A DNA stretch of 59,140 bases from the IMG/VR virus record IMGVR_UViG_3300030376_007244; one strand, written 5' to 3'. The stretch comes from an uncultured virus (IMG/VR IMGVR_UViG_3300030376_007244) (Duplodnaviria > Heunggongvirae > Uroviricota > Caudoviricetes). The notes beneath the pieces were generated by a model that was not told the DNA's origin, searched no databases, and worked only from the letters and a program-made list of their open reading frames with translations. The translations under genes and the position numbers were made by a program. Shown here piece after piece: positions 7,698 to 53,545 of this stretch (positions are counted from its first letter, which is position 1; each line of letters opens with the position of its first letter).

Positions 7698-7788
7698 TTG
7701 CTATTCTCCTTTTGTTCCAAAGAAAAAGAGGACCCGTTGAAGTCCTCTCAGGTCTAAATATTAATATATTTTTGTTAAAAAAGTGAAA

Positions 7789-7828
7789 AAAAGCATGTAC
7801 ATTAACCGGTTTTTATTAGTAGATTCTA
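7789..7828 (+). promoter_or_regulatory. Putative early promoter, copy 2 (TGTACA-N18-TAGATT)
   Basis: Conserved motif with upstream A-tracts and downstream AAGAGGTT RBS. Confidence 0.75.
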
Positions 7829-7848
7829 ATATAATTGAAAGAGGTTTC

Positions 7849-8394
7849 ATGAAAAATTGCAAGACGTGCGGTAAGTTTATGCCACACACAAGAATACATT
7901 TAGGATACAAGGAATGTGTTAGATGCAGCGACGTCGAAAAGTATTCAGCACATATAGTATATCCACATAAGACTGGTGGTTATGTACAACCAGTGAGTAG
8001 TGATACTAAAGATAGTTTACGTAGAATGGACAGACGCAGTGTTGGTGGTGGTAAGGTTGCAAAAGGTAGTGGATCATGGGATAGATGGTTAAAAGATTAT
8101 TATGCAAATAAAGAAAAGCAAAAATCGCGGGTGTCGTATAGTGGTAATACCTCAGCCTTCCAAGCTGATGCTGTCGGTTCGATTCCGTCCACCCGCTCCA
8201 TTAAAGATGTGATGAAAACTGCTATCAAAATGTTTATCAAGGATGGTTATCATATGAGTGTGCAATACGTTAATGGTTTATATTCTAAAGACGAAATCAC
8301 ATTGATCACTAAGTCCAATATAAACAACCATTTGACATATGTACATTCACATAATAAAAAACAGCAAAGGATGTTATTAAGTGAAGTATTATAA
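7849..8394 (+). CDS. Zn-ribbon-like protein (CxxC...CxxC) whose frame runs through a tRNA gene
   Basis: True start ATG 7849 after AAGAGGTT (the ORF-track start at 7783 translates the promoter). 'CKTCG...GYKECVRCS'. Confidence 0.65.
   Translation: MKNCKTCGKFMPHTRIHLGYKECVRCSDVEKYSAHIVYPHKTGGYVQPVSSDTKDSLRRMDRRSVGGGKVAKGSGSWDRWLKDYYANKEKQKSRVSYSGNTSAFQADAVGSIPSTRSIKDVMKTAIKMFIKDGYHMSVQYVNGLYSKDEITLITKSNINNHLTYVHSHNKKQQRMLLSEVL
8127..8200 (+). tRNA. tRNA-Gly(TCC) with encoded CCA
   Basis: Acceptor GCGGGTG/CACCCGC, D stem GTAT/ATAC, anticodon stem TCAGC/GCTGA with loop CT-TCC-AA, T loop TTCGATT, discriminator T plus CCA. One T-T mismatch in the T stem. Confidence 0.9.
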
Positions 8395-8662
8395 CAAAGA
8401 CGATATGTTCTTAATCACTGGTCATCAATTAAATCAGTGTATATGGGGAATAGAGATGATGATGGAATTGTTTCAAGAAAACGATGATATGATAATTAAA
8501 CTAGGGAGATTACGTGAAGAATTAATAAAAAAGATGAGTTACATGGAATTATTAGACAGTATAGGATTACCGCAAGCACCACCTGAAAATGAAATTGGGT
8601 GGGTAGATTTTTTAAGTGATCTGGGTTTGAAACCTTCTGAAAAGAAGGGAGGAAAGAAATGA
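8381..8662 (+). CDS. Hypothetical protein
   Basis: ORF track; GTG start after AAGGA. Confidence 0.6.
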   Translation: MKYYNKDDMFLITGHQLNQCIWGIEMMMELFQENDDMIIKLGRLREELIKKMSYMELLDSIGLPQAPPENEIGWVDFLSDLGLKPSEKKGGKK

Positions 8663-8678: not shown

Positions 8679-9014
8679 TTATCTACCAAATGCTATAGGA
8701 AGTCTATATCGTACTCGTACTGGAATGCCATTCTGATGAGCAGGAATATATTTCGTACCCTTAACTTTGTCAAGAATGACAGCATTGTAACTAATATCGA
8801 AAGTGTCTATCACGACAGCATCTTCAACGTCGCCATTTTTATTAACGATAAAATCAACAGTTACGGTACCGCTTGTGTAATAGTGGTAAGTGGATGGTAA
8901 GTCTGATGTGGTTAATTCGAATGGTTTCTTTGGTATGGGTGGATGGCTTCCTTCTTCGGAAGGAACTTGAGCAGCCACCAAGCTCAGTAACAAATAACCT
9001 AATATTGTCCTCAT
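8679..9014 (-). CDS. Stand-alone TonB C-terminal domain protein with signal peptide
   Basis: 'GTVTVDFIVNKNGDVEDAVV...KYIPAHQNGIPVRVRYRLPIAF' is the TonB_C pattern; short Pro-rich linker; SD GGAG. Confidence 0.8.
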   Translation of the reverse strand: MRTILGYLLLSLVAAQVPSEEGSHPPIPKKPFELTTSDLPSTYHYYTSGTVTVDFIVNKNGDVEDAVVIDTFDISYNAVILDKVKGTKYIPAHQNGIPVRVRYRLPIAFGR

Positions 9015-9473: not shown

Positions 9474-9962
9474 ATGTCTGTAAAAGATAAAATAGCAATC
9501 TTCGACTTAGACGGAACATTAGCTAACACAGATGAACGTATGAAGTTAGCAACATCTAATAAGACTAGAGAGGCCGACTATAATAAAATAGATTGGGGAG
9601 TATTACACGATCCAAAGAATATAAAATTAGATGTTCCAAATATTCCAGTTGTGACTATGTGTAAACTGTTATATGACAGTGGAGCATCAATCTATATTTT
9701 CAGTGGAAGATCAGACAGAACAAAGTTAGCAACTAAACTATGGTTAGATGAACATGACATCAAATATCATAAACTAGTTATGAGACCCTCAAATAAGAAG
9801 GAACTCTACATTTCTGATCAAGTCTTAAAGAAGAACATGTTAGATGATCACTGTGCAGATTTAAGCAAAGTTTTAGGTGTGTTTGACGATAGACAGAAAG
9901 TGGTGGATATGTGGAGAGAGAATGGTTTGACATGCTTTCAAGTGGACTATGGAGATTTCTAA
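9474..9962 (+). CDS. HAD-family phosphatase (PNKP/PseT 3'-phosphatase-like)
   Basis: 'IFDLDGTLA...FSGRS...LVMRP...DQVLK...VFDDRQKVVDMWR...GLTCFQV..GDF'. Confidence 0.9.
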   Translation: MSVKDKIAIFDLDGTLANTDERMKLATSNKTREADYNKIDWGVLHDPKNIKLDVPNIPVVTMCKLLYDSGASIYIFSGRSDRTKLATKLWLDEHDIKYHKLVMRPSNKKELYISDQVLKKNMLDDHCADLSKVLGVFDDRQKVVDMWRENGLTCFQVDYGDF

Positions 9963-45556: not shown

Positions 45557-48500
45557 GTGCCACATCAAAAATCCAAAAGACAAATTAACATCCCACAAAA
45601 GGTGTTCGACCTAGTCGTAAGACCAGAGTCAAACGATTATATTACATTTAGGGATACTGAATATTACAACCAGTTTGTAGATCTTCCATATGGTTCGCCT
45701 GAATGGCCAGAATATTCCTTTGGTGGTGATCCAAAAGATATAATACAGGTTAACATTTATGGAAATCAAGGTGGACTAATATCAACGGTATATAAAACAG
45801 CTTCTGATATAATGGTAGATGCAGGATTTGAAGAAGTTCCATCTATCAAAATAGAACCAGGATCAATACTAAGAGATTTAGGATTTAGAAAGGGTAGATT
45901 TACACTGGAAATGGATTTTATGAGAGTCCAAGCAGGAGGACCATTCCCAGTATTAGTCAACGGAAAAGACAAGTTATATAGAGGACCATTTGAAGAGTCA
46001 GATGATGGTTACTTTTTTGCATCTATAGATGATCCAGCTTCTGAGACACTAACAGAAGATAGATTGTATGTCAAAGAAAATAAGTACATAATAAAGCAAA
46101 TATCATCTGATAGAACGGAAGCCATTGTTATACCTGCATATATTGATGATGAAAAATATTTAGAAGATTTTAGATTAGCTGCGTACACATGCCTTAACGT
46201 TTTTCCAGATGCTGGAGAATCTTTACAGTTTCCACAAGATTTAAGTTCTAAATACATAACATTGACACTAAATGATGGAAACTCAATATTGTCATCGTAT
46301 ATAAACGGGGCAATACGTGTTAAAGATGCATACTTTTTGGGCAATAGAGAAGTACCAGAAGTAAGAGAAGTGTTTGAAGTAGAACCTTCAGTCGAAGTAG
46401 AACAATTGGTTCCAAACTTGTTAGCAAATAGGGGATTCGAAAGCGGAGCTAACTTTAGACCACTTTCTCCATGGCCTAGCCCGTTTAATTTGGTAAGCTA
46501 TGTTGAGGGAGCCGATATATATCCGTTATTTAGTATACAACCAGATTTAATACCAAGTCCAATCGGTCAAATTGGCATAAATCTTCAGTATAACGATTTA
46601 CTTGCAGGTCCAGATACACCAAACAGAGAATTGGCAAATGAGGCCTACAATGAGAGGTATCAAAAGACTACTGGTGTTTCTGATGGGAGCATGGTATACG
46701 GAGCATCTGGTATTGAAACGTATCCATGGTTATTTAAAGGGGACTTTGTAAGAACTGGATTGGATATAACTGGTCAAACACATACATTTAGTTTTTATAT
46801 GAATGCAGCTGAAGGTACAACCGTTAGATGTTTCATAAAGACAGGTGCTTGGGGATCTGGATGGCAAACAAGCCAAAACTTTCAGTGTACAGGCGAGTGG
46901 CAAAGATTTGTAGTAACATTTACCCCTGACTTTTTTGACAATAGAGGATTACTAATACGAATAAATATAGATCAACGAACCGTGCATGTACCAGGTTTAG
47001 ATGCTATGTTGCCATTATTTGCTGCTAGTGGAGATGTTGTTAATACTATACTTCCACACATAAATGACGTGCCTCTTGAAATGGCAGGAGCTATGTTGCA
47101 AAGAGGATCTTCGGCAACCAAATATCACACTAATGATACAACTTCTAATGACGGAGTCATTGAAACACCAACAAACGGTTTAATTAAGTTTAAGTCAGAT
47201 GAACCAGACGTAATACATGTGGAGGATTTTCCAGAAGGAAGTGGCAAATTTACACCAAAAATGGTTGGTGGTTTAATAACAATTTCCAATGCAATTGCAA
47301 CAAACGATTTTACACAAGTTTTAGAAACACAAGACGTAATTGAAGAAACAATTTCTAGGTGGGATTTTCAACCAACTGGTGAAGCCTCAGGTTCTATGGG
47401 ACTATTTAAGGCATCAGATCCAGATTCTCAATTTCCAGAAATGGGTTGGGACATTAACTTACATTCTAAAGCAATTGAAGTTGAAGATGAAGATGGAATC
47501 AGAATGTTTGATACTGGACTCACAAATACAGATTATATTTCTAGACACACCAATTATGATTACCATAGATTTCATCGTGCTAGAGATGATAAAGGATATT
47601 GGCCCGGAACTGGACATATTGGATACCACGTTCATTGGAGAAAAGATGCTGGTGTAAATGAAGATCCAGCCTTAGTATTTCCAGATTTAAATTATCAAGA
47701 ATGGATTTTAGGTCCAATGACTATAGCTGCTAACGAATCAATTAACAGCACAGATCCAGATAAAAATTATTTTGCAAAACGAGAATTAGGCGAAGATACC
47801 AGATTACAGGAAGGTAGAGGAACCAGTTATTCTAAGTTCCCACATAGACCATTAGAAAACTATATATTTTTAAGAAGAAGTTTGGCTTCTCACAATATAC
47901 AGCAAGGAGATACTGTAAGGCTTAAATTTAAGATGAAGTCGCAACCAGTAGACTTTGATCAAGGAAAAAGAAAGGGTATTAGAGCTCAGTTTTATAGATC
48001 AGTTGGTGATAGACTTATAGAGCCTTCACCGCTTGGTCCAGAACAAATAGCTGGATTGTACGGTAATGTTACGTTGCCTTCGACTATTGACATTTTAAAG
48101 GAAATGACATATCCCATTATAAAGCGTATGTATCAAGCTCCTAACAGTTTTATTGGAGATCTTGGTGGGGTTAATCAGGCTCCATTTGAACCATTTAATA
48201 TTGAGATAGAAAGAGTCAACATCTTTTTAGATGTACTAGACATGTTATATCCTCAAATTGGCAGTTGGTTTGCAGACGATAACAATAAAGTTTGGCCTGA
48301 TTATTTTAACCTTGACCTTTTTAATTTTGTTCCAAGAATACGAGTACGTTATGAACACTTTCCCGAAGATCTTCAAAACTCACTAGGGATAGATAGTAAT
48401 TTTACAGATTTACATTCTAACTTTTTAAATTTAGTAAATGATCCCGGTGATGGTGCCATTATTCAGTTGGGTGACCTTGCAGGTGGATTGATTGGAGAAG

Positions 48501-51500
48501 GTGCATTCCTACATCACAACTTACAACGTAACAGTATACAAGAACTTTACGAAGTTTGGTCACCAACGTTGGATTCGATGGCATATTATCAAGGTGAATT
48601 TGCACAAAAAATGAATGGTCTTACTGGTAGAATACGTGGTAAAGTTGTTGCTGACGCGCCGGCTGGGGGTTTCACATACGATATTCCTAATGGAGTATTA
48701 AGAACATCTGGTACGGATGGCCTTTCACTCGGTGGTGCGAATCTTGAAGGATATTTTTTCTATCATAAGACTAACTCTAGAAGAAACTTTAAGCTCACAG
48801 TTATACCTTCACTTGTCAAATTAGGTACAATAGATAGGGAATCATTTTTTAACAATCCAAACGACGTAGCCCAAACACTAATAGGTCAAAGCAACTCAGT
48901 TGGTCAGAGAACTGGCATAGACTTTTCTACAGAAGCCGGCATTGGAGCGATTGCCGATAACAATGTAGATATAACCGAGCATTTTGGAATACAAACAAAT
49001 AGGTTCTCAAGATTTGATACGGACGATTCATGGAAGTACACATGGAGATATGGAAATGTTAACTCAGTAACACAATTAGACAATAGTCCTTACGACGCAC
49101 TATTAGATTTAGACGGTTTACAGCAGGCGTATACAGAACAGGCTTTCCAAGAGACTGCTACTCAAGTTATTGACATGAACGATTTCGTTAACGATATTAA
49201 TAATATAGACTTTGACAATTTGCATCCCGATGTTGCAGCAAGAATAGGTGCGCCAACAAATCAACCAATTATATCAGACGATAACTTATTTCAATGGAAC
49301 TTTGCAGACCAATCTTGGGATTATATAGGTCCCGAAGATCAGGTTGAGATGGACGGACCATTACTAGTAAAAAGAAAAACCTCACATGTAACCGCAATAG
49401 ATCCTCTTGATTTGTCAACACAGGAACCAGGAGATCCATATTTTACAGAAGAAAGAAGAGATGTAAATGGATACATGTATGGAAAATACTTGTCACAATA
49501 CATTGTTCCAGAGGTATACGATGAGTGGGAAGAATACATAGTAGAGTTTCCAATATCAGATCAAGTTTTAGTTGATTTTCCTGCATTCATAAAAATGAGT
49601 GGACACTTAGGAGATTATGGTACAGTGTATTTAGATGATATTGAAGTTTCAGTTAGAAGATCTTCGGATACACGAATACAGATTTCTCCATATACAATAT
49701 TGGCTCCACTAACTGCACAGATACATGAAGTTATAGATGAAAATACAGTGCGCGTAGATGCTGATTATGATACATTGGCAGAAGATCAGGGAGCGGTACC
49801 TAGCAATTACGCAGTATCTAGGTATTCCGAGTTTGGATCGGGTTTCAATATAGATTATGTTGAAGAACAACAAAGAATTGAACCTATATATGCAAAGTAC
49901 GTTTCTAATATTATTGGTGTAGAACCAGAAAATAATAGAATAATTGTAGAGAAATCTTACCAAGAATATGGACAAGAGATTGGCGCAATGTTCGATCAAG
50001 AGGAATCGATCGATGCTAGTAACGTGATGTTTGATGATTACTTTATTAGACATAGGTTGAAGGACAAAGATAATCTCTACACGTACATGATTAAAGATTC
50101 AGTAACTAAAAATTTAATTATAAACTTTAAACCAGTCAATACTTCAGAATATCCAGGTGGAATAGCATATAAATTTATGGATCCATTGGATTCATCTATA
50201 GAACCGTTAGACCAAGTTTTTATAGCACAAGAGGTAACTCCAGCTTTAACTGAGACCGTAGATCTTATACCATTTGAAGATGAAGAAATTCCAGAAACAG
50301 TATTAAGACAACCAGATTTCGACAATATAGAGCCTCTAGTTTCGAACAGGGATACTCCATATAGAAGCCACACGGATCTGGTTGGAATAGAACCTGGATT
50401 ACGTAAACAGTTAGAAAACAGATTGTTAAGTGGAAGTTTAGAAACCACCAAAATCAATATAGATTATAGGCAGTTTAAAAACTTTTCACACTTTGGTTCT
50501 GTTAAAAAACGAATACAAAATTTTAAAACAAAATTAACATCGATTGAAACATATTCTAATAGAAGTGCTTCTCTCGTAGGAACATACCCAAAAGAAGGAT
50601 ACTTAGAAAATGCTGCGAATACTGAAATAAGTTCATCTGCAGATCAAGTTAAGGTATGGGAGCTTTCTAGAGACGAAGTAATAAATGGATTTGATGATTT
50701 CGAAAACTACATGTACTTTAAAAACGAAGCATATGTAACAAGTTCTTTAGGTGAATTTTTTGATAACAGTGCACCAAAAATATCTGGAGATGGAACGTTA
50801 ATTAGTCCATATGTTTTATATTCAGTTACCAGCTCTCAATTTACAAGTTGGTATAACGGAGCATATGATAGTGCTTCAGTATATGATCAACAAAATAAAA
50901 ATAGATTGGTCAACTTAATACCAGAACATGTAAAATACGATGAGATGAATAGTCAGTTTATAGACTTTATAGACATGATTGGACACCATTATGATACCAT
51001 ATGGACACACGTTAAATCTCTTACAGATGTACATGATAGATCTGAGGATATAACTAAAGGTATTGCTGCTGCTCTCACTGAACCAGTTGCAAAATCTTTT
51101 GGGTTCGAATTAAAAGAAGGCCATGATTTAGTTAGACTTCCACAATACGAATTAGGTCTACAAGAGTCTGGATCTAAAACTGGAGTATTCAGTGTTAGGT
51201 ATACCAAACGATCCCAAAAAGATGTTACTAGAGAAATATGGAATAGATTATTAGCATCGATGCCATATTTGCTAAAAACAAAGGGTACAAAGCAAAGTCT
51301 AAAGGGATTAATAGCATCATACGGTATACCAGGTTCTATATTAAGAATACAAGAATACGGTGGACCTAGAATTGATGGAGCTCCTGATTTTGAAATAAAA
51401 CAAAAATTTACTAAAGCTGTAGATTTTAATGGGTCAAGTCACGTTGAAGTTCCATGGTATAATTCAGACACTTCTACCAGGGCACCAGATACTATTGAGT

Positions 51501-53545
51501 TTAGATTTAAAACTCCTAGTTCAACAGAACAACAAGTAATTGGAAAGTCTGATGCTACTGGAAACGAAGTTGTCGCTGGTGTAAAATTAACACCTACTGG
51601 CTCCAAAGGTAATTTAACATTTTTCCTATCTGGAAGTACATCGCTAAGTATGAGCATTGACAATCAAGACTTTTACAATAATGAATTTTGGTCAGTGATG
51701 GTTAGAAGACGACAAGCTAGTATCACATCTAGTTTTTCTGAACAAACACTAACATCTAATGAAGCTGCAACACAAAGTTTTGACATGTACGCTGGATATT
51801 TTGATAGTGGAATAGATAAAATTATTACACGTGAATCGGCCAGCATGACCGTTTCTAGCAGTTTAAAGGCAAATTGGTATGCTACGTCATCTGCTGGAAC
51901 ATCTCGTAGATGGTTTGTTGGTGGTAACAATGCTTTTGGATATGCAAACAGATTTACTGGATCTATGATGGAGTTTAGATATTGGAATAGTCCTCTAACA
52001 TCATCTGCATTTTTTAATCATGTTGCTGCACCAAAAGCAATAAATGGTAACCATGCTAGCTCATCATATTTTGATTTATCTTTAAGGTTATCATTTGATG
52101 ACAATTTAAATTTAAGTACGGACCCTCTAGAAATAAAGGATTACACATTTACTGATGACCAAATATATGTGACAGCTTCTAACTTTCCAAACAAAGTAAA
52201 CTTTAGTAATGTGTTTGATAGGCAAAAATCATTTGTGCCAAAAATAGGATTTACAAAGGCAAGTAATAAGGTAAGATTAGAAGGATCACAGCTAAAAACT
52301 CCGGACGGAATACCAGCTGTACTAAATAGATCTGAACGTGTTGAGTTGAGCATGTATGATAAGTCAGGATTAGACTCAAACAAGTTGGGCATATACTTTG
52401 CACCCACTGATGTTATAAATGAAGATATTATGTTATCTCTAGCTGATTTGGATTTTAATGAATATTTAGGTGATCCACGAGACAACGATAATGATAGATA
52501 CATTGATGGTGGATTAGATGAAATAAGTGATACATATTGGAAAAAATGGACAACTAGACAGGGTTTTTGGGACTATCTAAAGTTAATAAAATATTATGAC
52601 TTAAGTCTATTTGATCACATACGAAGATTTGCACCAGGAAGGGCAAAGAAAACTATAGGAATATTGATTGAATCACCTATGTTGGAAAGACCAAAGGTTT
52701 CATCACTTATACCAATACCAGAAGCACAACCTAGGGATTTTCTAGGTACAGATGATTTATCTGTAGCAGGTGAATATGGAATTGGTAGTGCTACTAGTTC
52801 TAGAACATTTGCAGATGGAACAGTTTCAGAATTAAAGCTTCCTGTTACAAGTTCATTTGAAAGAAGAAGCGCAAAGCTAGATAGAGTAGTTACTTCTGTA
52901 TCAAGTTCAGATTCTTTATTGAGAACTTCACATATAGTAACATCAGATATTTACGTAACTAGTGGATCTGATGCTCAACAACGTACGGGTCACATACAAA
53001 ATGCTGGATTCAATGCCAGTGGTAGTAATGATTTAATGAGACAGGGAAACTTGGTAGGATTACCTGCAGCAAGCAGTAGTAGAGAAGATTTCGAAACTGG
53101 ACATGTAAGTTCAAGTCAATTAAACATAGTTAACACAATAAGAAACTTCGGTTTAGATTATTTACAAGATGCTAATGATAGAGATTACTCTGATGCCAGA
53201 GTAGAATTAAAACCAGATAACCATTTCTTATCGGGCTTAGAGCCACATTATACATCATCTAAACTATCGATTTTCAATGAAGAAGTAGTTTACTTTTATA
53301 GTTCAAGTGTAAGTGCATCACTTAGAAAGGCTTACTCATCATCTATGCAAAGTAGTGAGTTTGAATCCATATATAATATGCACACTGGTTTAACTAGGTT
53401 GGTTTACGATGGATGTAAAGAAGGTGGCAATACAGTTCCTGATGGTACAAACTTGGTTGTTGAAATAACAGAAACAAATCCGTTTGATGTAACAACTAAC
53501 CAATCCGGAGACCAGTTTGTAGATGTGGAACTTTTGAATGAATAA
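45557..53545 (+). CDS. Giant (2662 aa) baseplate-wedge/tail protein (gp7-like core, CBM-like inserts, LamG-like domain)
   Basis: 'PYLLKTKGTKQSLKGLIASYG' (gp7/gpI-like KGT motif), 'TIEFRFK...FTGSMMEFRYW' (LamG-like), 'NLLANRGFE...WQRFVVTF' (CBM-like). Confidence 0.7.
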   Translation: MPHQKSKRQINIPQKVFDLVVRPESNDYITFRDTEYYNQFVDLPYGSPEWPEYSFGGDPKDIIQVNIYGNQGGLISTVYKTASDIMVDAGFEEVPSIKIEPGSILRDLGFRKGRFTLEMDFMRVQAGGPFPVLVNGKDKLYRGPFEESDDGYFFASIDDPASETLTEDRLYVKENKYIIKQISSDRTEAIVIPAYIDDEKYLEDFRLAAYTCLNVFPDAGESLQFPQDLSSKYITLTLNDGNSILSSYINGAIRVKDAYFLGNREVPEVREVFEVEPSVEVEQLVPNLLANRGFESGANFRPLSPWPSPFNLVSYVEGADIYPLFSIQPDLIPSPIGQIGINLQYNDLLAGPDTPNRELANEAYNERYQKTTGVSDGSMVYGASGIETYPWLFKGDFVRTGLDITGQTHTFSFYMNAAEGTTVRCFIKTGAWGSGWQTSQNFQCTGEWQRFVVTFTPDFFDNRGLLIRINIDQRTVHVPGLDAMLPLFAASGDVVNTILPHINDVPLEMAGAMLQRGSSATKYHTNDTTSNDGVIETPTNGLIKFKSDEPDVIHVEDFPEGSGKFTPKMVGGLITISNAIATNDFTQVLETQDVIEETISRWDFQPTGEASGSMGLFKASDPDSQFPEMGWDINLHSKAIEVEDEDGIRMFDTGLTNTDYISRHTNYDYHRFHRARDDKGYWPGTGHIGYHVHWRKDAGVNEDPALVFPDLNYQEWILGPMTIAANESINSTDPDKNYFAKRELGEDTRLQEGRGTSYSKFPHRPLENYIFLRRSLASHNIQQGDTVRLKFKMKSQPVDFDQGKRKGIRAQFYRSVGDRLIEPSPLGPEQIAGLYGNVTLPSTIDILKEMTYPIIKRMYQAPNSFIGDLGGVNQAPFEPFNIEIERVNIFLDVLDMLYPQIGSWFADDNNKVWPDYFNLDLFNFVPRIRVRYEHFPEDLQNSLGIDSNFTDLHSNFLNLVNDPGDGAIIQLGDLAGGLIGEGAFLHHNLQRNSIQELYEVWSPTLDSMAYYQGEFAQKMNGLTGRIRGKVVADAPAGGFTYDIPNGVLRTSGTDGLSLGGANLEGYFFYHKTNSRRNFKLTVIPSLVKLGTIDRESFFNNPNDVAQTLIGQSNSVGQRTGIDFSTEAGIGAIADNNVDITEHFGIQTNRFSRFDTDDSWKYTWRYGNVNSVTQLDNSPYDALLDLDGLQQAYTEQAFQETATQVIDMNDFVNDINNIDFDNLHPDVAARIGAPTNQPIISDDNLFQWNFADQSWDYIGPEDQVEMDGPLLVKRKTSHVTAIDPLDLSTQEPGDPYFTEERRDVNGYMYGKYLSQYIVPEVYDEWEEYIVEFPISDQVLVDFPAFIKMSGHLGDYGTVYLDDIEVSVRRSSDTRIQISPYTILAPLTAQIHEVIDENTVRVDADYDTLAEDQGAVPSNYAVSRYSEFGSGFNIDYVEEQQRIEPIYAKYVSNIIGVEPENNRIIVEKSYQEYGQEIGAMFDQEESIDASNVMFDDYFIRHRLKDKDNLYTYMIKDSVTKNLIINFKPVNTSEYPGGIAYKFMDPLDSSIEPLDQVFIAQEVTPALTETVDLIPFEDEEIPETVLRQPDFDNIEPLVSNRDTPYRSHTDLVGIEPGLRKQLENRLLSGSLETTKINIDYRQFKNFSHFGSVKKRIQNFKTKLTSIETYSNRSASLVGTYPKEGYLENAANTEISSSADQVKVWELSRDEVINGFDDFENYMYFKNEAYVTSSLGEFFDNSAPKISGDGTLISPYVLYSVTSSQFTSWYNGAYDSASVYDQQNKNRLVNLIPEHVKYDEMNSQFIDFIDMIGHHYDTIWTHVKSLTDVHDRSEDITKGIAAALTEPVAKSFGFELKEGHDLVRLPQYELGLQESGSKTGVFSVRYTKRSQKDVTREIWNRLLASMPYLLKTKGTKQSLKGLIASYGIPGSILRIQEYGGPRIDGAPDFEIKQKFTKAVDFNGSSHVEVPWYNSDTSTRAPDTIEFRFKTPSSTEQQVIGKSDATGNEVVAGVKLTPTGSKGNLTFFLSGSTSLSMSIDNQDFYNNEFWSVMVRRRQASITSSFSEQTLTSNEAATQSFDMYAGYFDSGIDKIITRESASMTVSSSLKANWYATSSAGTSRRWFVGGNNAFGYANRFTGSMMEFRYWNSPLTSSAFFNHVAAPKAINGNHASSSYFDLSLRLSFDDNLNLSTDPLEIKDYTFTDDQIYVTASNFPNKVNFSNVFDRQKSFVPKIGFTKASNKVRLEGSQLKTPDGIPAVLNRSERVELSMYDKSGLDSNKLGIYFAPTDVINEDIMLSLADLDFNEYLGDPRDNDNDRYIDGGLDEISDTYWKKWTTRQGFWDYLKLIKYYDLSLFDHIRRFAPGRAKKTIGILIESPMLERPKVSSLIPIPEAQPRDFLGTDDLSVAGEYGIGSATSSRTFADGTVSELKLPVTSSFERRSAKLDRVVTSVSSSDSLLRTSHIVTSDIYVTSGSDAQQRTGHIQNAGFNASGSNDLMRQGNLVGLPAASSSREDFETGHVSSSQLNIVNTIRNFGLDYLQDANDRDYSDARVELKPDNHFLSGLEPHYTSSKLSIFNEEVVYFYSSSVSASLRKAYSSSMQSSEFESIYNMHTGLTRLVYDGCKEGGNTVPDGTNLVVEITETNPFDVTTNQSGDQFVDVELLNE

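Follow-up and report, generated by a model that had tools for sequence, protein, structure and literature searches.

An intact tRNA gene nested in frame between the two domains of a tailed-phage protein gene

A tRNA-Gly gene inside a 181-codon reading frame

The window, meaning here the whole stretch of 59,140 nucleotides that was analysed, comes from an uncultured member of the Caudoviricetes (IMG/VR record IMGVR_UViG_3300030376_007244) and has a myovirus-like gene content, including baseplate wedge, PhoH and Hsp20 proteins. On its + strand, positions 7849–8394 hold an open reading frame (ORF) of 181 codons plus stop, recognised from its open frame and its homologues as encoding a protein with two domains, whose family, found in marine phages, is uncharacterised. 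The frame is open from the ATG at 7849 to the stop at 8392–8394; a GTG at 7783 would give 203 codons. Within it, on the same strand, lies a tRNA-Gly(UCC) gene, which extends from the acceptor 5′ end to the discriminator at 8127–8197 and is followed by an encoded CCA at 8198–8200. The one tRNA that ARAGORN calls in the entire 59 kb is tRNA-Gly(tcc), located on the + strand at 8127–8200, and the full Rfam model RF00005 matches 8127–8197 with 62.1 bits (E 4.2e-11, gathering score 29), the sole Rfam match of the window. Covariation among nested copies and a match to a free-standing phage tRNA, both described below, agree with this call. A complete tRNA-Gly lying in frame inside a 181-codon ORF was the central claim of an earlier, sequence-only reading, and it is borne out by the open frame and by both tRNA searches, including the tRNA-finder scoring which that reading had asked for. 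Its count of 92 codons before the tRNA and 64 after it is likewise confirmed; codons 93–117 overlap the tRNA. Among the nested copies only that of the window encodes CCA, which is absent from L081, L083, L161 and the other nested Gly copies.

The T-stem contains one non-canonical pair, U.U, which had been raised as a possible sign of a decaying tRNA. The 25-nt T-arm and acceptor end that includes it recurs at 71 places in bacterial genomes; 69 of these are readable over the full length, and 67 of the 69 are tRNA-Gly-like, with 55–63 of 71 positions identical. Since the same end recurs in bacterial tRNA-Gly genes, the U.U pair is not a mark of decay but normal for tRNA-Gly(UCC), and the tRNA is identical to that of L081 at 71/71 positions despite a flank dS of about 0.5. 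In the comparison with L161, 68/71 positions are identical at a dS of 1.0–1.6. Verrucomicrobia, Alphaproteobacteria and Cyanobacteria all have tRNA-Gly genes with the 25-nt end, which therefore carries no usable host signal. The anticodon loop reads C-U-UCC-A-A in all ten nested Gly copies, with seven bases, U33 and a purine at position 37, and the anticodon agrees with the tRNA body. In the window as a whole, 41% of Gly codons are GGA, which fits a demand for this tRNA. Its frequency is 35.8 per 1000 codons in the baseplate region at 37–59 kb versus 22.3 per 1000 at 1–37 kb, so the remark that GGA is frequent in the late genes holds numerically.

In alignments of the family, the N-terminal domain (codons 1–92, 7849–8124) shows a zinc ribbon of the CxxC...CxxC kind, a WDRW helix, and YPHKTG and DRR motifs that do not vary. 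The C-terminal domain (codons 118–181, 8200–8391) contains an invariant GY motif and is modelled by AlphaFold2 as four helices (residues 118–132, 134–146, 152–166 and 170–180) with pLDDT 92–95. Between them, the translated tRNA supplies codons 93–117 (8125–8199). AlphaFold2 places the tRNA-coded residues as coil between a helix and the confident C domain, with pLDDT below 50 for residues 94–110, and in this model they form a disordered interdomain linker.

The window protein and 10–12 other family members match no Pfam or PHROG family. For the DksA/TraR zinc finger PF01258 in particular, the window protein has no Pfam match at E≤1, and one distant family member scores 17.5 bits, below the cut-off of 24.9. 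Structural and language-model likeness to that zinc finger is weak and sub-threshold. The spacing of the CxxC...CxxC motif resembles the DksA/TraR family, which is a lead only. Foldseek searches of the PDB and BFVD returned nothing at E≤1e-3, tblastn against 50,697 GenBank phage records gave no match, and a protein atlas yielded unnamed viral clusters only.

Upstream of the start, positions 7820–7844 (+ strand) hold the motif TAGATTCTA, a TATAAT-like hexamer and an AGAGG ribosome-binding site, the last a Shine-Dalgarno-like motif at 7840–7844. These motifs recur upstream of the start in L081, L163, L166, L176, L164 and other relatives, and may act as a promoter. A sigma-70 scan found no + strand promoter match at 7700–7849, so the gene's own promoter, as proposed by the sequence-only reading, is putative; the ribosome-binding site proposed with it is matched by the AGAGG motif. 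The scan gave ten matches in total, against 6.0 ± 2.2 in shuffles, among them one weak match inside the ORF (8000–8027, 9/12) which could provide the tRNA with a promoter of its own. On the − strand, a terminator-like hairpin of the convergent upstream gene (7726–7749, ten pairs followed by a T-run) marks the start of the transcription unit. Downstream, a 93-codon ORF (8381–8662, + strand), which has no Pfam or PHROG family match, begins 14 bases before the host ORF ends, and the two are probably co-transcribed. Neighbouring genes encode pilin-like, TonB_C, PNKP phosphatase domain and AAA ATPase proteins and offer no clue to the function of the family.

The gene family with and without a tRNA

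The family comprises 593 homologues at E≤1e-3 in a set of 5.8 billion proteins, most of which are 169–190 aa long and span about 97% of the query. Distant relatives of a YHKTGN type also exist. Relatives without a tRNA carry both halves of the protein in one continuous gene of about 170–180 codons. Of the 20 related viral loci compared first, 17 show this, and family scans found a single tRNA-less ORF at 76/80 viral and 67/79 metagenome loci; counted as distinct full-length alleles, 111 of 126 are tRNA-less. The homologue comparison proposed beforehand thus identifies the tRNA as a frame-preserving occupant, and homologues do not stop before it. The cluster of the window protein is present on 12 contigs and a 92% relative on 19; the nested arrangement recurs on independent long contigs of 59, 72, 66, 135, 96 and 30 kb, so misassembly does not account for it. 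A 21 kb fragment, G001, is the nearest record and lacks a tRNA, and the contigs of L001, L002, L113 and L119, with estimated completeness of 17–52%, hold one to three tRNAs each.

The chance of an open frame across a tRNA was gauged from 158 distinct free-standing tRNAs in the fetched loci, in which 176 of 474 sense frames (37%) are stop-free. ORFs at control loci occasionally reach into neighbouring tRNAs (L076, L065–L069). In 12 of 60 controls bearing a free tRNA-Gly(tcc), the frame stays open through the tRNA for 90 codons or more, and in none of these do family domains flank the tRNA on both sides. Judged by this comparison of homologues and controls, the ORF spanning the tRNA is a real gene and no chance read-through.

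An intact same-strand tRNA occupies the linker in 17 genes (the window, four viral loci and 12 metagenome loci), and all 17 are open and in frame. ARAGORN calls ten of these tRNAs Gly(tcc), four Cys(gca), with one further duplicate, one Ala(tgc) and two Trp(cca). Rfam scores of the scanned copies range from 52.1 to 69.7 bits, against the gathering score of 29; three free-standing neighbour tRNAs score 63.0–69.4 bits. The tRNAs of L163, L166, L167 and L193 are identical in sequence to scanned ones and were not scanned separately, and that of L164 scored 55.2 bits when its region was scanned alone, having been lost to a filter in the scan at the gathering threshold. The identity of the Trp-called copies is uncertain because a shifted anticodon loop sits on a Gly-like body; with two extra T-stem mismatches, these tRNAs may be failing.

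Substitutions in the nested copies preserve the cloverleaf. Among the Cys copies 8/20 pairs are compensatory and 97.5% of cells are paired, a covariation score reached by 0/500 shuffles, and the D and anticodon stems share in this (three compensatory pairs). The Gly/Trp copies have compensatory changes at 3/21 pairs, pairing in 92.5% of cells and a score above all 500 shuffles. Such changes also alter the protein: an anticodon-stem change from U-A to C-G turns Ser/Asp into Pro/Gly, and acceptor pairs change from G-C to A-U. Both protein halves have dN/dS of 0.04–0.27 in tRNA-bearing genes where dS is unsaturated (0.04–0.27 for the N-terminal half, 0.08–0.25 for the C-terminal), a pattern by which both are under purifying selection. 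Relatives carry a Gly, Cys, Ala or Trp-like tRNA in the same place, and on these comparisons the linker DNA is therefore kept both as protein code and as tRNA.

Because the tRNA lies between two conserved domains, the downstream domain would depend on read-through. In 8/17 nested genes, the stretch from the 3′ end of the tRNA to the invariant GY motif contains no in-frame ATG, GTG or TTG. Where candidate starts for the C domain do exist, they lack a Shine-Dalgarno-like motif, which true starts have. Indirectly, these features indicate that the C domain needs read-through of the tRNA.

Several nested tRNAs have close free-standing counterparts. A phage tRNA-Gly that stands free in L024 matches the nested Gly tRNA at 70/71 positions. 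About 1.8 kb upstream of the gene, L008-type loci have a free Cys tRNA with 87% identity to the copy nested in L113, and the nested Ala copy shares 89% identity with a free Ala tRNA. Free-standing tRNAs of this kind lie within 0.4–2.4 kb of the host gene in relatives. One well-supported clade carries the tRNA in 13/19 distinct alleles (trees were built from about 150 columns, one with FastTree and the other by a quick IQ-TREE run on 65 hand-chosen rows of 126). In the same clade, direct inspection of L168, L171, L172 and L173 revealed remnants without D and anticodon arms, in which the acceptor ends of tRNA-Gly persist as an 11-bp stem. Pairing of this stem is 100% in three full-length copies, with two compensatory pairs, a covariation that 53/500 shuffles reach. 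Three of the four remnant linkers resemble the tRNA 3′ end with z of 4.0–4.8, while six other tRNA-less linkers give −1.1 to 1.7. By this resemblance, the linker sequence of one subclade is descended from a tRNA. An Rfam scan of 16 tRNA-less loci at E≤10 gave tRNA matches only at known free-standing tRNAs and none in the linker, and no tRNA relic was found in the linkers of L165 and L170. Three N types and three C types meet at the tRNA joint in 7/9 possible combinations, which may be true recombinants or else chimeras of short-read assembly, formed at the 72-nt repeat that they share.

A probable dual-use gene and its alternatives

Taken together, sequence comparison makes it probable that this is a dual-use gene, in which one transcription unit has two possible products, the whole protein or a tRNA released by RNase P and 3′ processing. 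Transcription would start from the gene's own upstream signals. A ribosome that reads the transcript before the tRNA folds would make the 181-residue protein, with the tRNA translated as 24–25 linker residues. If the cloverleaf folds, host RNase P would instead cut at 8127, followed by 3′ trimming and addition of CCA where it is not encoded, and the released tRNA would read GGA/GGG. RNase P cleavage and 3′-end processing of tRNA transcripts are established. After the cut, the 5′ fragment would lack a stop and the 3′ fragment a start; as release of the tRNA would sever the mRNA, protein and tRNA would be alternative products of one molecule, possibly as the regulatory switch that the sequence-only reading suggested. 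Among the sequencing runs listed, none of RNA carried the locus, and the five metatranscriptome runs contained almost none of its sequence words. As to origin, the linker may be a permissive slot in a gene that sits in the tRNA neighbourhood of these phages. tRNA lineages that also occur as free-standing genes, for Cys and Ala within a few kb in relatives and for Gly in other phages, would have entered it more than once, and selection would then retain both cloverleaf and open frame.

A different emphasis makes the cut itself the selected function, a built-in post-transcriptional switch that limits or times the zinc-ribbon protein, in which any RNase P substrate could serve and tRNA identity is secondary. 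Four called tRNA identities in one slot, the 13/19 tRNA-bearing clade alleles, the 11-bp acceptor stem of the four armless alleles, fully paired with two compensatory pairs in three full-length copies, and the likeness of remnant linkers to the tRNA 3′ end would all fit such a switch, and the same logic was proposed for selC in selB, as outlined by Mukai 2021 (PMC8124441). It is nevertheless a minority possibility. The compensatory D and anticodon stems of the Cys copies and the conserved anticodon loops point to a whole tRNA, able to decode, as the object of selection, the covariation of the remnants comes from three sequences and is matched by about a tenth of the shuffles, and the great majority of distinct alleles manage without a tRNA. 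A more elaborate version takes the linker as an evolved tRNA cassette site, in which an either/or cleavage switch sets the level of the zinc-ribbon protein, the hairpin-only subclade keeps nothing but cleavage, and the tRNA is a joint at which N and C modules are shuffled; being near-invariant among co-infecting phages, the tRNA would serve as a portable joint for homologous recombination. All of this together we regard as unlikely. It is improbable, to a much greater degree, that the tRNA is a tolerated passenger, translated as linker, never matured to a working tRNA and persisting only through recent acquisition. The lack of an encoded CCA in most copies, the T-stem mismatches of the Trp-called copies and the in-place decay possible in L168–L173 lend it some credit, but compensatory substitutions preserve stems while altering encoded residues, the tRNA is identical where flanking synonymous sites have diverged, and nested copies score 52–70 bits in Rfam, the range of three free-standing neighbours.

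Two further explanations are very hard to sustain. Insertion at tRNA genes is a habit of many temperate elements, which then contain a portion of the tRNA, and this would make the window tRNA an attachment site or its remnant, copied from a host tRNA gene, as the sequence-only reading had also considered. That suggestion fails on several counts: the tRNA is complete, 5′ half included; no PHROG integrase was found among the 62 ORFs of the window, whose gene content is myovirus-like; an exact-match search of 185,579 species genomes found nothing for the 34-nt 3′ half of the tRNA; and the best bacterial tRNA-Gly reached through the 25-nt end is 63/71 identical, against up to 70/71 for phage copies. 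One HTH protein 5 kb away shows a weak match to an excisionase family. The last explanation, equally remote, is an artefact in which two small genes with a tRNA between them were joined by chance read-through or misassembly. A stop-free rate of 37% and the occasional control ORF that enters a tRNA show how a single case might arise; it is contradicted by the tRNA-less relatives with both halves in one ORF, by the in-frame position of 17/17 copies of at least three unrelated tRNA types (a chance of about 0.37 × 1/3 per independent event), by the start-less C half in 8/17, and by recurrence of the arrangement on many independent contigs.

The preferred reading, a gene with two products, bears on annotation, where pipelines hold a tRNA and a protein gene on the same bases to be mutually exclusive; the comparative evidence here indicates that selection keeps both. 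It draws on 17 nested genes with three unrelated tRNA lineages, on RNA covariation, on low flank dN/dS and on a downstream domain apparently reached by read-through only. As a natural system, the gene would pit translation against processing of the same RNA molecule. It also suggests that disordered protein linkers can be landing sites for phage tRNA genes, and that a conserved tRNA inside a gene may additionally act as a recombination joint.

Comparison with known systems

In mitochondria, tRNAs punctuate the genome, tRNA genes overlap or are nested, and their excision defines or destroys neighbouring mRNAs. Mitochondrial tRNAs usually separate coding regions, unlike the window tRNA, which is read within one polypeptide, and the genetic system differs. 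In phages, turnover of tRNA regions driven by homing endonucleases provides a lead. Large phages have free-standing tRNA genes and tRNA clusters with the same kind of cargo, for example the tRNA region of T4, which includes the homing endonuclease SegB (PMC2330249). Those tRNAs are intergenic. Free-standing phage tRNAs are 87–99% identical to the nested Gly, Cys and Ala copies.

No phage precedent for a nested tRNA was found in the literature, and the sole published precedent found is one bioinformatic report in bacteria, in which, as far as the report sets it out, the tRNA forms a C-terminal tail. In Alphaproteobacteria, selC (tRNA-Sec) is nested in the selB ORF, and tRNA processing was proposed to leave a non-stop mRNA, making protein and tRNA alternative products; remnant tRNA sequences are described in some selB lineages (Mukai 2021, Int J Mol Sci 22:4605, PMC8124441). 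For both cases the evidence is purely bioinformatic; going by that account, each has a whole sense-strand tRNA inside an ORF, translated as extra residues. The feature that defines selB–selC, a tRNA inside an open sense ORF conserved across relatives, is present in 17/17 of the genes described here, while a C-terminal extension that binds its own tRNA is not. As presented in the report, the tRNA of selB is a C-terminal extension with no domain behind it, whereas that of the window gene lies between two conserved domains. Finally, the tRNA nested in selB is described as the protein's own ligand; here the gene belongs to a phage, and the slot holds Gly, Cys, Ala or Trp-called tRNAs depending on the allele.

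The nested tRNA and its host gene

ARAGORN calls a single tRNA in the window, a tRNA-Gly(tcc) at 8127–8200 on the plus strand. The Rfam tRNA model matches it over its full length (8127–8197) with a score of 62.1 bits (gathering score 29), and this is the only Rfam match across the 59-kb window. The tRNA lies within an ORF of 181 codons on the same strand, which runs from an ATG at 7849, preceded by an AGAGG ribosome-binding motif, to a stop codon at 8392–8394; the frame is open throughout, with 92 codons ahead of the tRNA, codons 93–117 overlapping it and 64 after. These data bear out the sequence-only reading, in which a complete tRNA sits in frame within a protein-coding ORF. The encoded CCA that it described is present, with the correction that it is peculiar to the window among nested copies, and the frequent use of GGA holds (41% of Gly codons; 35.8 per 1000 codons in the baseplate region compared to 22.3 elsewhere). 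The T-stem mismatch raised as a possible sign of decay is a single non-canonical pair, a normal trait of tRNA-Gly(UCC) common to 71 bacterial genome places with the same 25-nt 3′ end. In the minimum-energy fold of the mRNA context the acceptor, anticodon and T stems are present, and the flanks are A/U-rich and open.

The gene had also been credited with its own promoter. A sigma-70 scan found none on the plus strand upstream of the host ORF, and one weak match within it (8000–8027). A TAGATTCTA-like motif followed by an A/T-rich hexamer is conserved ahead of the family-gene start codon in many loci; the motif lies at 7820–7835 in the window and also upstream of the gene in L081, L163, L164, L166, L169, L176, L185 and L189. 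Motif and hexamer together may be a phage-specific promoter outside the reach of the sigma-70 scan.

The host protein belongs to a family of 593 proteins (E ≤ 1e-3 in a set of 5.8 billion proteins), with 347 cluster representatives in a 50%-identity library; most are 169–190 residues long and cover ~97% of the query. Pfam and PHROG searches found no family for the host protein or the other members searched, and 50,697 GenBank phage records contained no family match. The likeness of the N-terminal zinc ribbon to the DksA/TraR type is below threshold. In an AlphaFold2 model built with 61 family sequences (mean pLDDT 72.8), residues 118–180 form four helices (pLDDT 92–95) and the stretch encoded by the tRNA is coil (pLDDT below 50 at residues 94–110); the tRNA-coded peptide is thus modelled as a disordered linker. 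The only PHROG match below E 0.01 (phrog_30175, E 0.0059) falls on this peptide (8149–8199, residues 101–117), a hint that ORF calls spanning tRNA genes gave rise to some PHROG families of unknown function. Four family proteins (P0138, P0150, P0221 and P0239) share an unrelated tail of about 20 residues at the protein end, which resembles translated sequencing-adaptor sequence; they may be products of contaminated short contigs in public protein sets.

Chance read-through and a recurrent tRNA slot

The openness of the frame alone proves little. Many tRNAs have at least one stop-free frame: among 158 distinct free-standing tRNAs in the fetched loci, 176 of the 474 sense frames contain no stop. 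In addition, at 60 control loci that have a free tRNA-Gly(tcc), an ORF sometimes extends into the tRNA. In these controls the open stretch through the tRNA is shorter than 90 codons in all but 12, and in none of the 60 does it link family domains on both sides. One control holds a KdsA-like ORF that continues through two apparent tRNAs at its 3′ end (L076:185–1129), and in others (L065, L067, L068 and L069:2932–3903) a frame of 323 codons stays open from a point 22 codons ahead of the tRNA-Gly into a lipase-like gene; both cases resemble simple read-through at a gene end and not a tRNA nested between domains. It is comparison with relatives, not openness, that decides between chance and design. 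A search of IMG/VR with the 181-residue product yielded 20 loci matching both halves. Two of these (92% and 61% identical) carry the same tRNA-Gly at the same place, 17 have no tRNA there and consist of one continuous ORF of 171–207 open codons with both N and C parts, and in the remaining one, L020, the C part is cut short. A stop before the tRNA followed by a separate downstream gene, the arrangement that the sequence-only reading had set against nesting, was found at none of the 20. In L020/L160:1073–1537 the C-domain frame is lost after the invariant GY motif, possibly through a frameshift or truncation of this allele.

An alignment of 20 tRNA-less members (A1) was used to fetch 80 IMG/VR and 80 metagenome-contig family loci, the latter counted as 79 since one lacked the motif used to locate the frame. 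ARAGORN placed a same-strand tRNA inside the ORF at 4 of the 80 and 12 of the 79, giving 17 nested genes with the window: Gly(tcc) 10, Cys(gca) 5 including one duplicate, Ala(tgc) 1 and Trp(cca) 2. All 17 tRNAs lie between the WDRW helix of the N part and the GY motif, and all 17 genes are in frame and stop-free; the tRNAs scanned score 52.1–69.7 bits with Rfam. Corresponding tRNA-coded peptides are seen in ~27 of the 120 database homologues listed, as counted by eye at the peptide level only. The junctions vary, with the tRNA starting 5 to 13 residues after WDRW and ending 8 to 16 residues before GY, and Gly, Trp and one Cys copy are read in phase 2, Ala and the other Cys copies in phase 0. 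As judged from these loci, related phage tRNAs repeatedly occupy the same linker slot. The two Trp-called copies (L189:1489–1560 and L192:269–340; 52–54 bits) have a Gly(tcc) body, 56/71 identical to the window's tRNA, with the anticodon loop shifted by one base, a C.A pair at the base of the anticodon stem and two T-stem mismatches, and could represent anticodon remoulding or early decay.

Both RNA and protein bear marks of selection. In the nested Cys tRNAs (four distinct sequences), 8 of 20 stem pairs have compensatory changes and 97.5% of cells are paired, a covariation score above all 500 shuffles and all slid controls; for the seven distinct Gly/Trp copies the values are 3 of 21 pairs and 92.5%. 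Several compensatory changes in nested tRNAs alter encoded amino acids, so the constraint on the RNA overrides that on the peptide. The tRNAs of the window and L081 are identical (71/71) with synonymous divergence of ~0.5 in both flanks, and those of the window and L161 are 68/71 identical at dS 1.0–1.6. Between tRNA-bearing genes with unsaturated dS, dN/dS is 0.042–0.273 for the N part and 0.078–0.252 for the C part. No in-frame ATG, GTG or TTG occurs between the tRNA 3′ end and GY in 8 of the 17 genes, and in the other nine no candidate C-domain start has a Shine-Dalgarno-like motif, a motif that the true starts do have; the C domain must therefore be reached through the tRNA. Together these patterns show, on sequence evidence, an intact, selected tRNA inside a selected ORF, and a downstream domain dependent on read-through.

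Origin, loss and exchange

The gene content of the window is myovirus-like (baseplate wedge proteins, PhoH, Hsp20, thymidylate synthase, peptide deformylase and a PNKP phosphatase-domain gene), and no integrase match was found in it. The PNKP gene (9474–9959; PF25109, E 2.6e-31), which may be linked to tRNA repair as in T4 biology, lies 1.1 kb downstream of the nested tRNA, with a TonB_C-domain gene on the opposite strand between them (8682–9014, minus). A 2662-codon ORF beside the baseplate genes (45557–53545) has no PHROG match at E ≤ 1e-5. In relatives, free-standing tRNAs are found near the family gene: Ala and Cys 1.8–2.4 kb upstream, Lys 0.44 kb upstream and Cys ~0.7 kb downstream. One locus has five tRNAs, the last of which stops 52 bases short of the tblastn match marking the family gene. 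In L113 the nested Cys tRNA shares 87% identity with a free Cys tRNA from the family-gene neighbourhood, and the nested Ala is 89% identical to a free Ala tRNA; the nested Gly is 70/71 identical to a free-standing Gly tRNA on other viral contigs, compared to 63/71 for the best bacterial copy found.

A FastTree phylogeny built from 126 distinct full-length alleles without the linker columns places the tRNA-bearing alleles at two positions: a clade of 19 (support 99) with Gly 7, Cys 3, Trp 2, Ala 1 and six members that lack a tRNA, and a separate pair, L113 and L119 (both Cys), within a 98-row clade of tRNA-less alleles. At least five presence/absence changes are required. A single clade of all tRNA-bearing alleles was rejected by an AU test (delta lnL 176.7, p 2e-47), run in quick IQ-TREE on 65 author-selected rows with the tested group named after the first tree was seen. 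The ancestral state is most likely a fused gene without the tRNA, since the more distant relatives of YHKTGN type likewise have one ORF with no tRNA in it.

Within the clade of 19, four of the six alleles that lack a tRNA retain the 5′ and 3′ acceptor ends of tRNA-Gly in the linker (L168, L171 and L172, each at 1779–1835, and L173:1779–1817); the interior is replaced or deleted, and the D and anticodon arms are lost. Local similarity to the tRNA 3′ end gives z of 4.0–4.8 in three of the four linkers and is low in L171, compared to −1.1 to 1.7 in six other tRNA-less linkers. The remnants fold into an 11-bp and a 6-bp stem (−23 to −26 kcal/mol). In the three full-length remnants 17 of 17 pairs hold, with two compensatory changes; with a sample of just three sequences, 53 of 500 shuffles reach the same level. 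The Rfam tRNA model does not detect the four remnants. The retained acceptor ends indicate that part of the linker in this subclade descends from a tRNA.

Database proteins with the Gly tRNA (P0002, P0003, P0006–P0009, P0011 and P0029 were compared) combine three N-part and three C-part types in seven of nine possible ways; one N type, 100% identical in three proteins, carries C parts only 39–53% identical to each other. Similarly, dS between the L189 and L192 DNA is 0.67 before the tRNA and 0.055 after. These mosaics fit recombination at the invariant tRNA, but most of the sequences come from short contigs (0.7–3.4 kb) and may instead be chimeras formed at the shared 72-nt repeat during short-read metagenome assembly.

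Mechanism and comparison with known nested tRNAs

Maturation of tRNAs by RNase P, 3′ trimming and CCA addition is well established, as is ribosome rescue. By these routes one transcript would yield either protein or tRNA, and processing would leave a 5′ fragment with no stop codon and a 3′ fragment with no start. A full-text search for nested or embedded tRNAs, with most subscription journals outside its coverage, found no phage case. Among published cases the nearest is selC inside selB, presented there as the first nested tRNA reported for a bacterial ORF (Mukai 2021, PMC8124441). The same either/or logic is proposed for selB–selC; unlike the tRNA in the window, selC forms a C-terminal tail and is the protein's own ligand (PMC8124441). 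What is new here is that the tRNA sits mid-gene with a conserved domain on either side, that tRNAs of different identity replace one another in a single slot, that a tRNA has decayed in place to a hairpin and, possibly, that a tRNA serves as a recombination joint.
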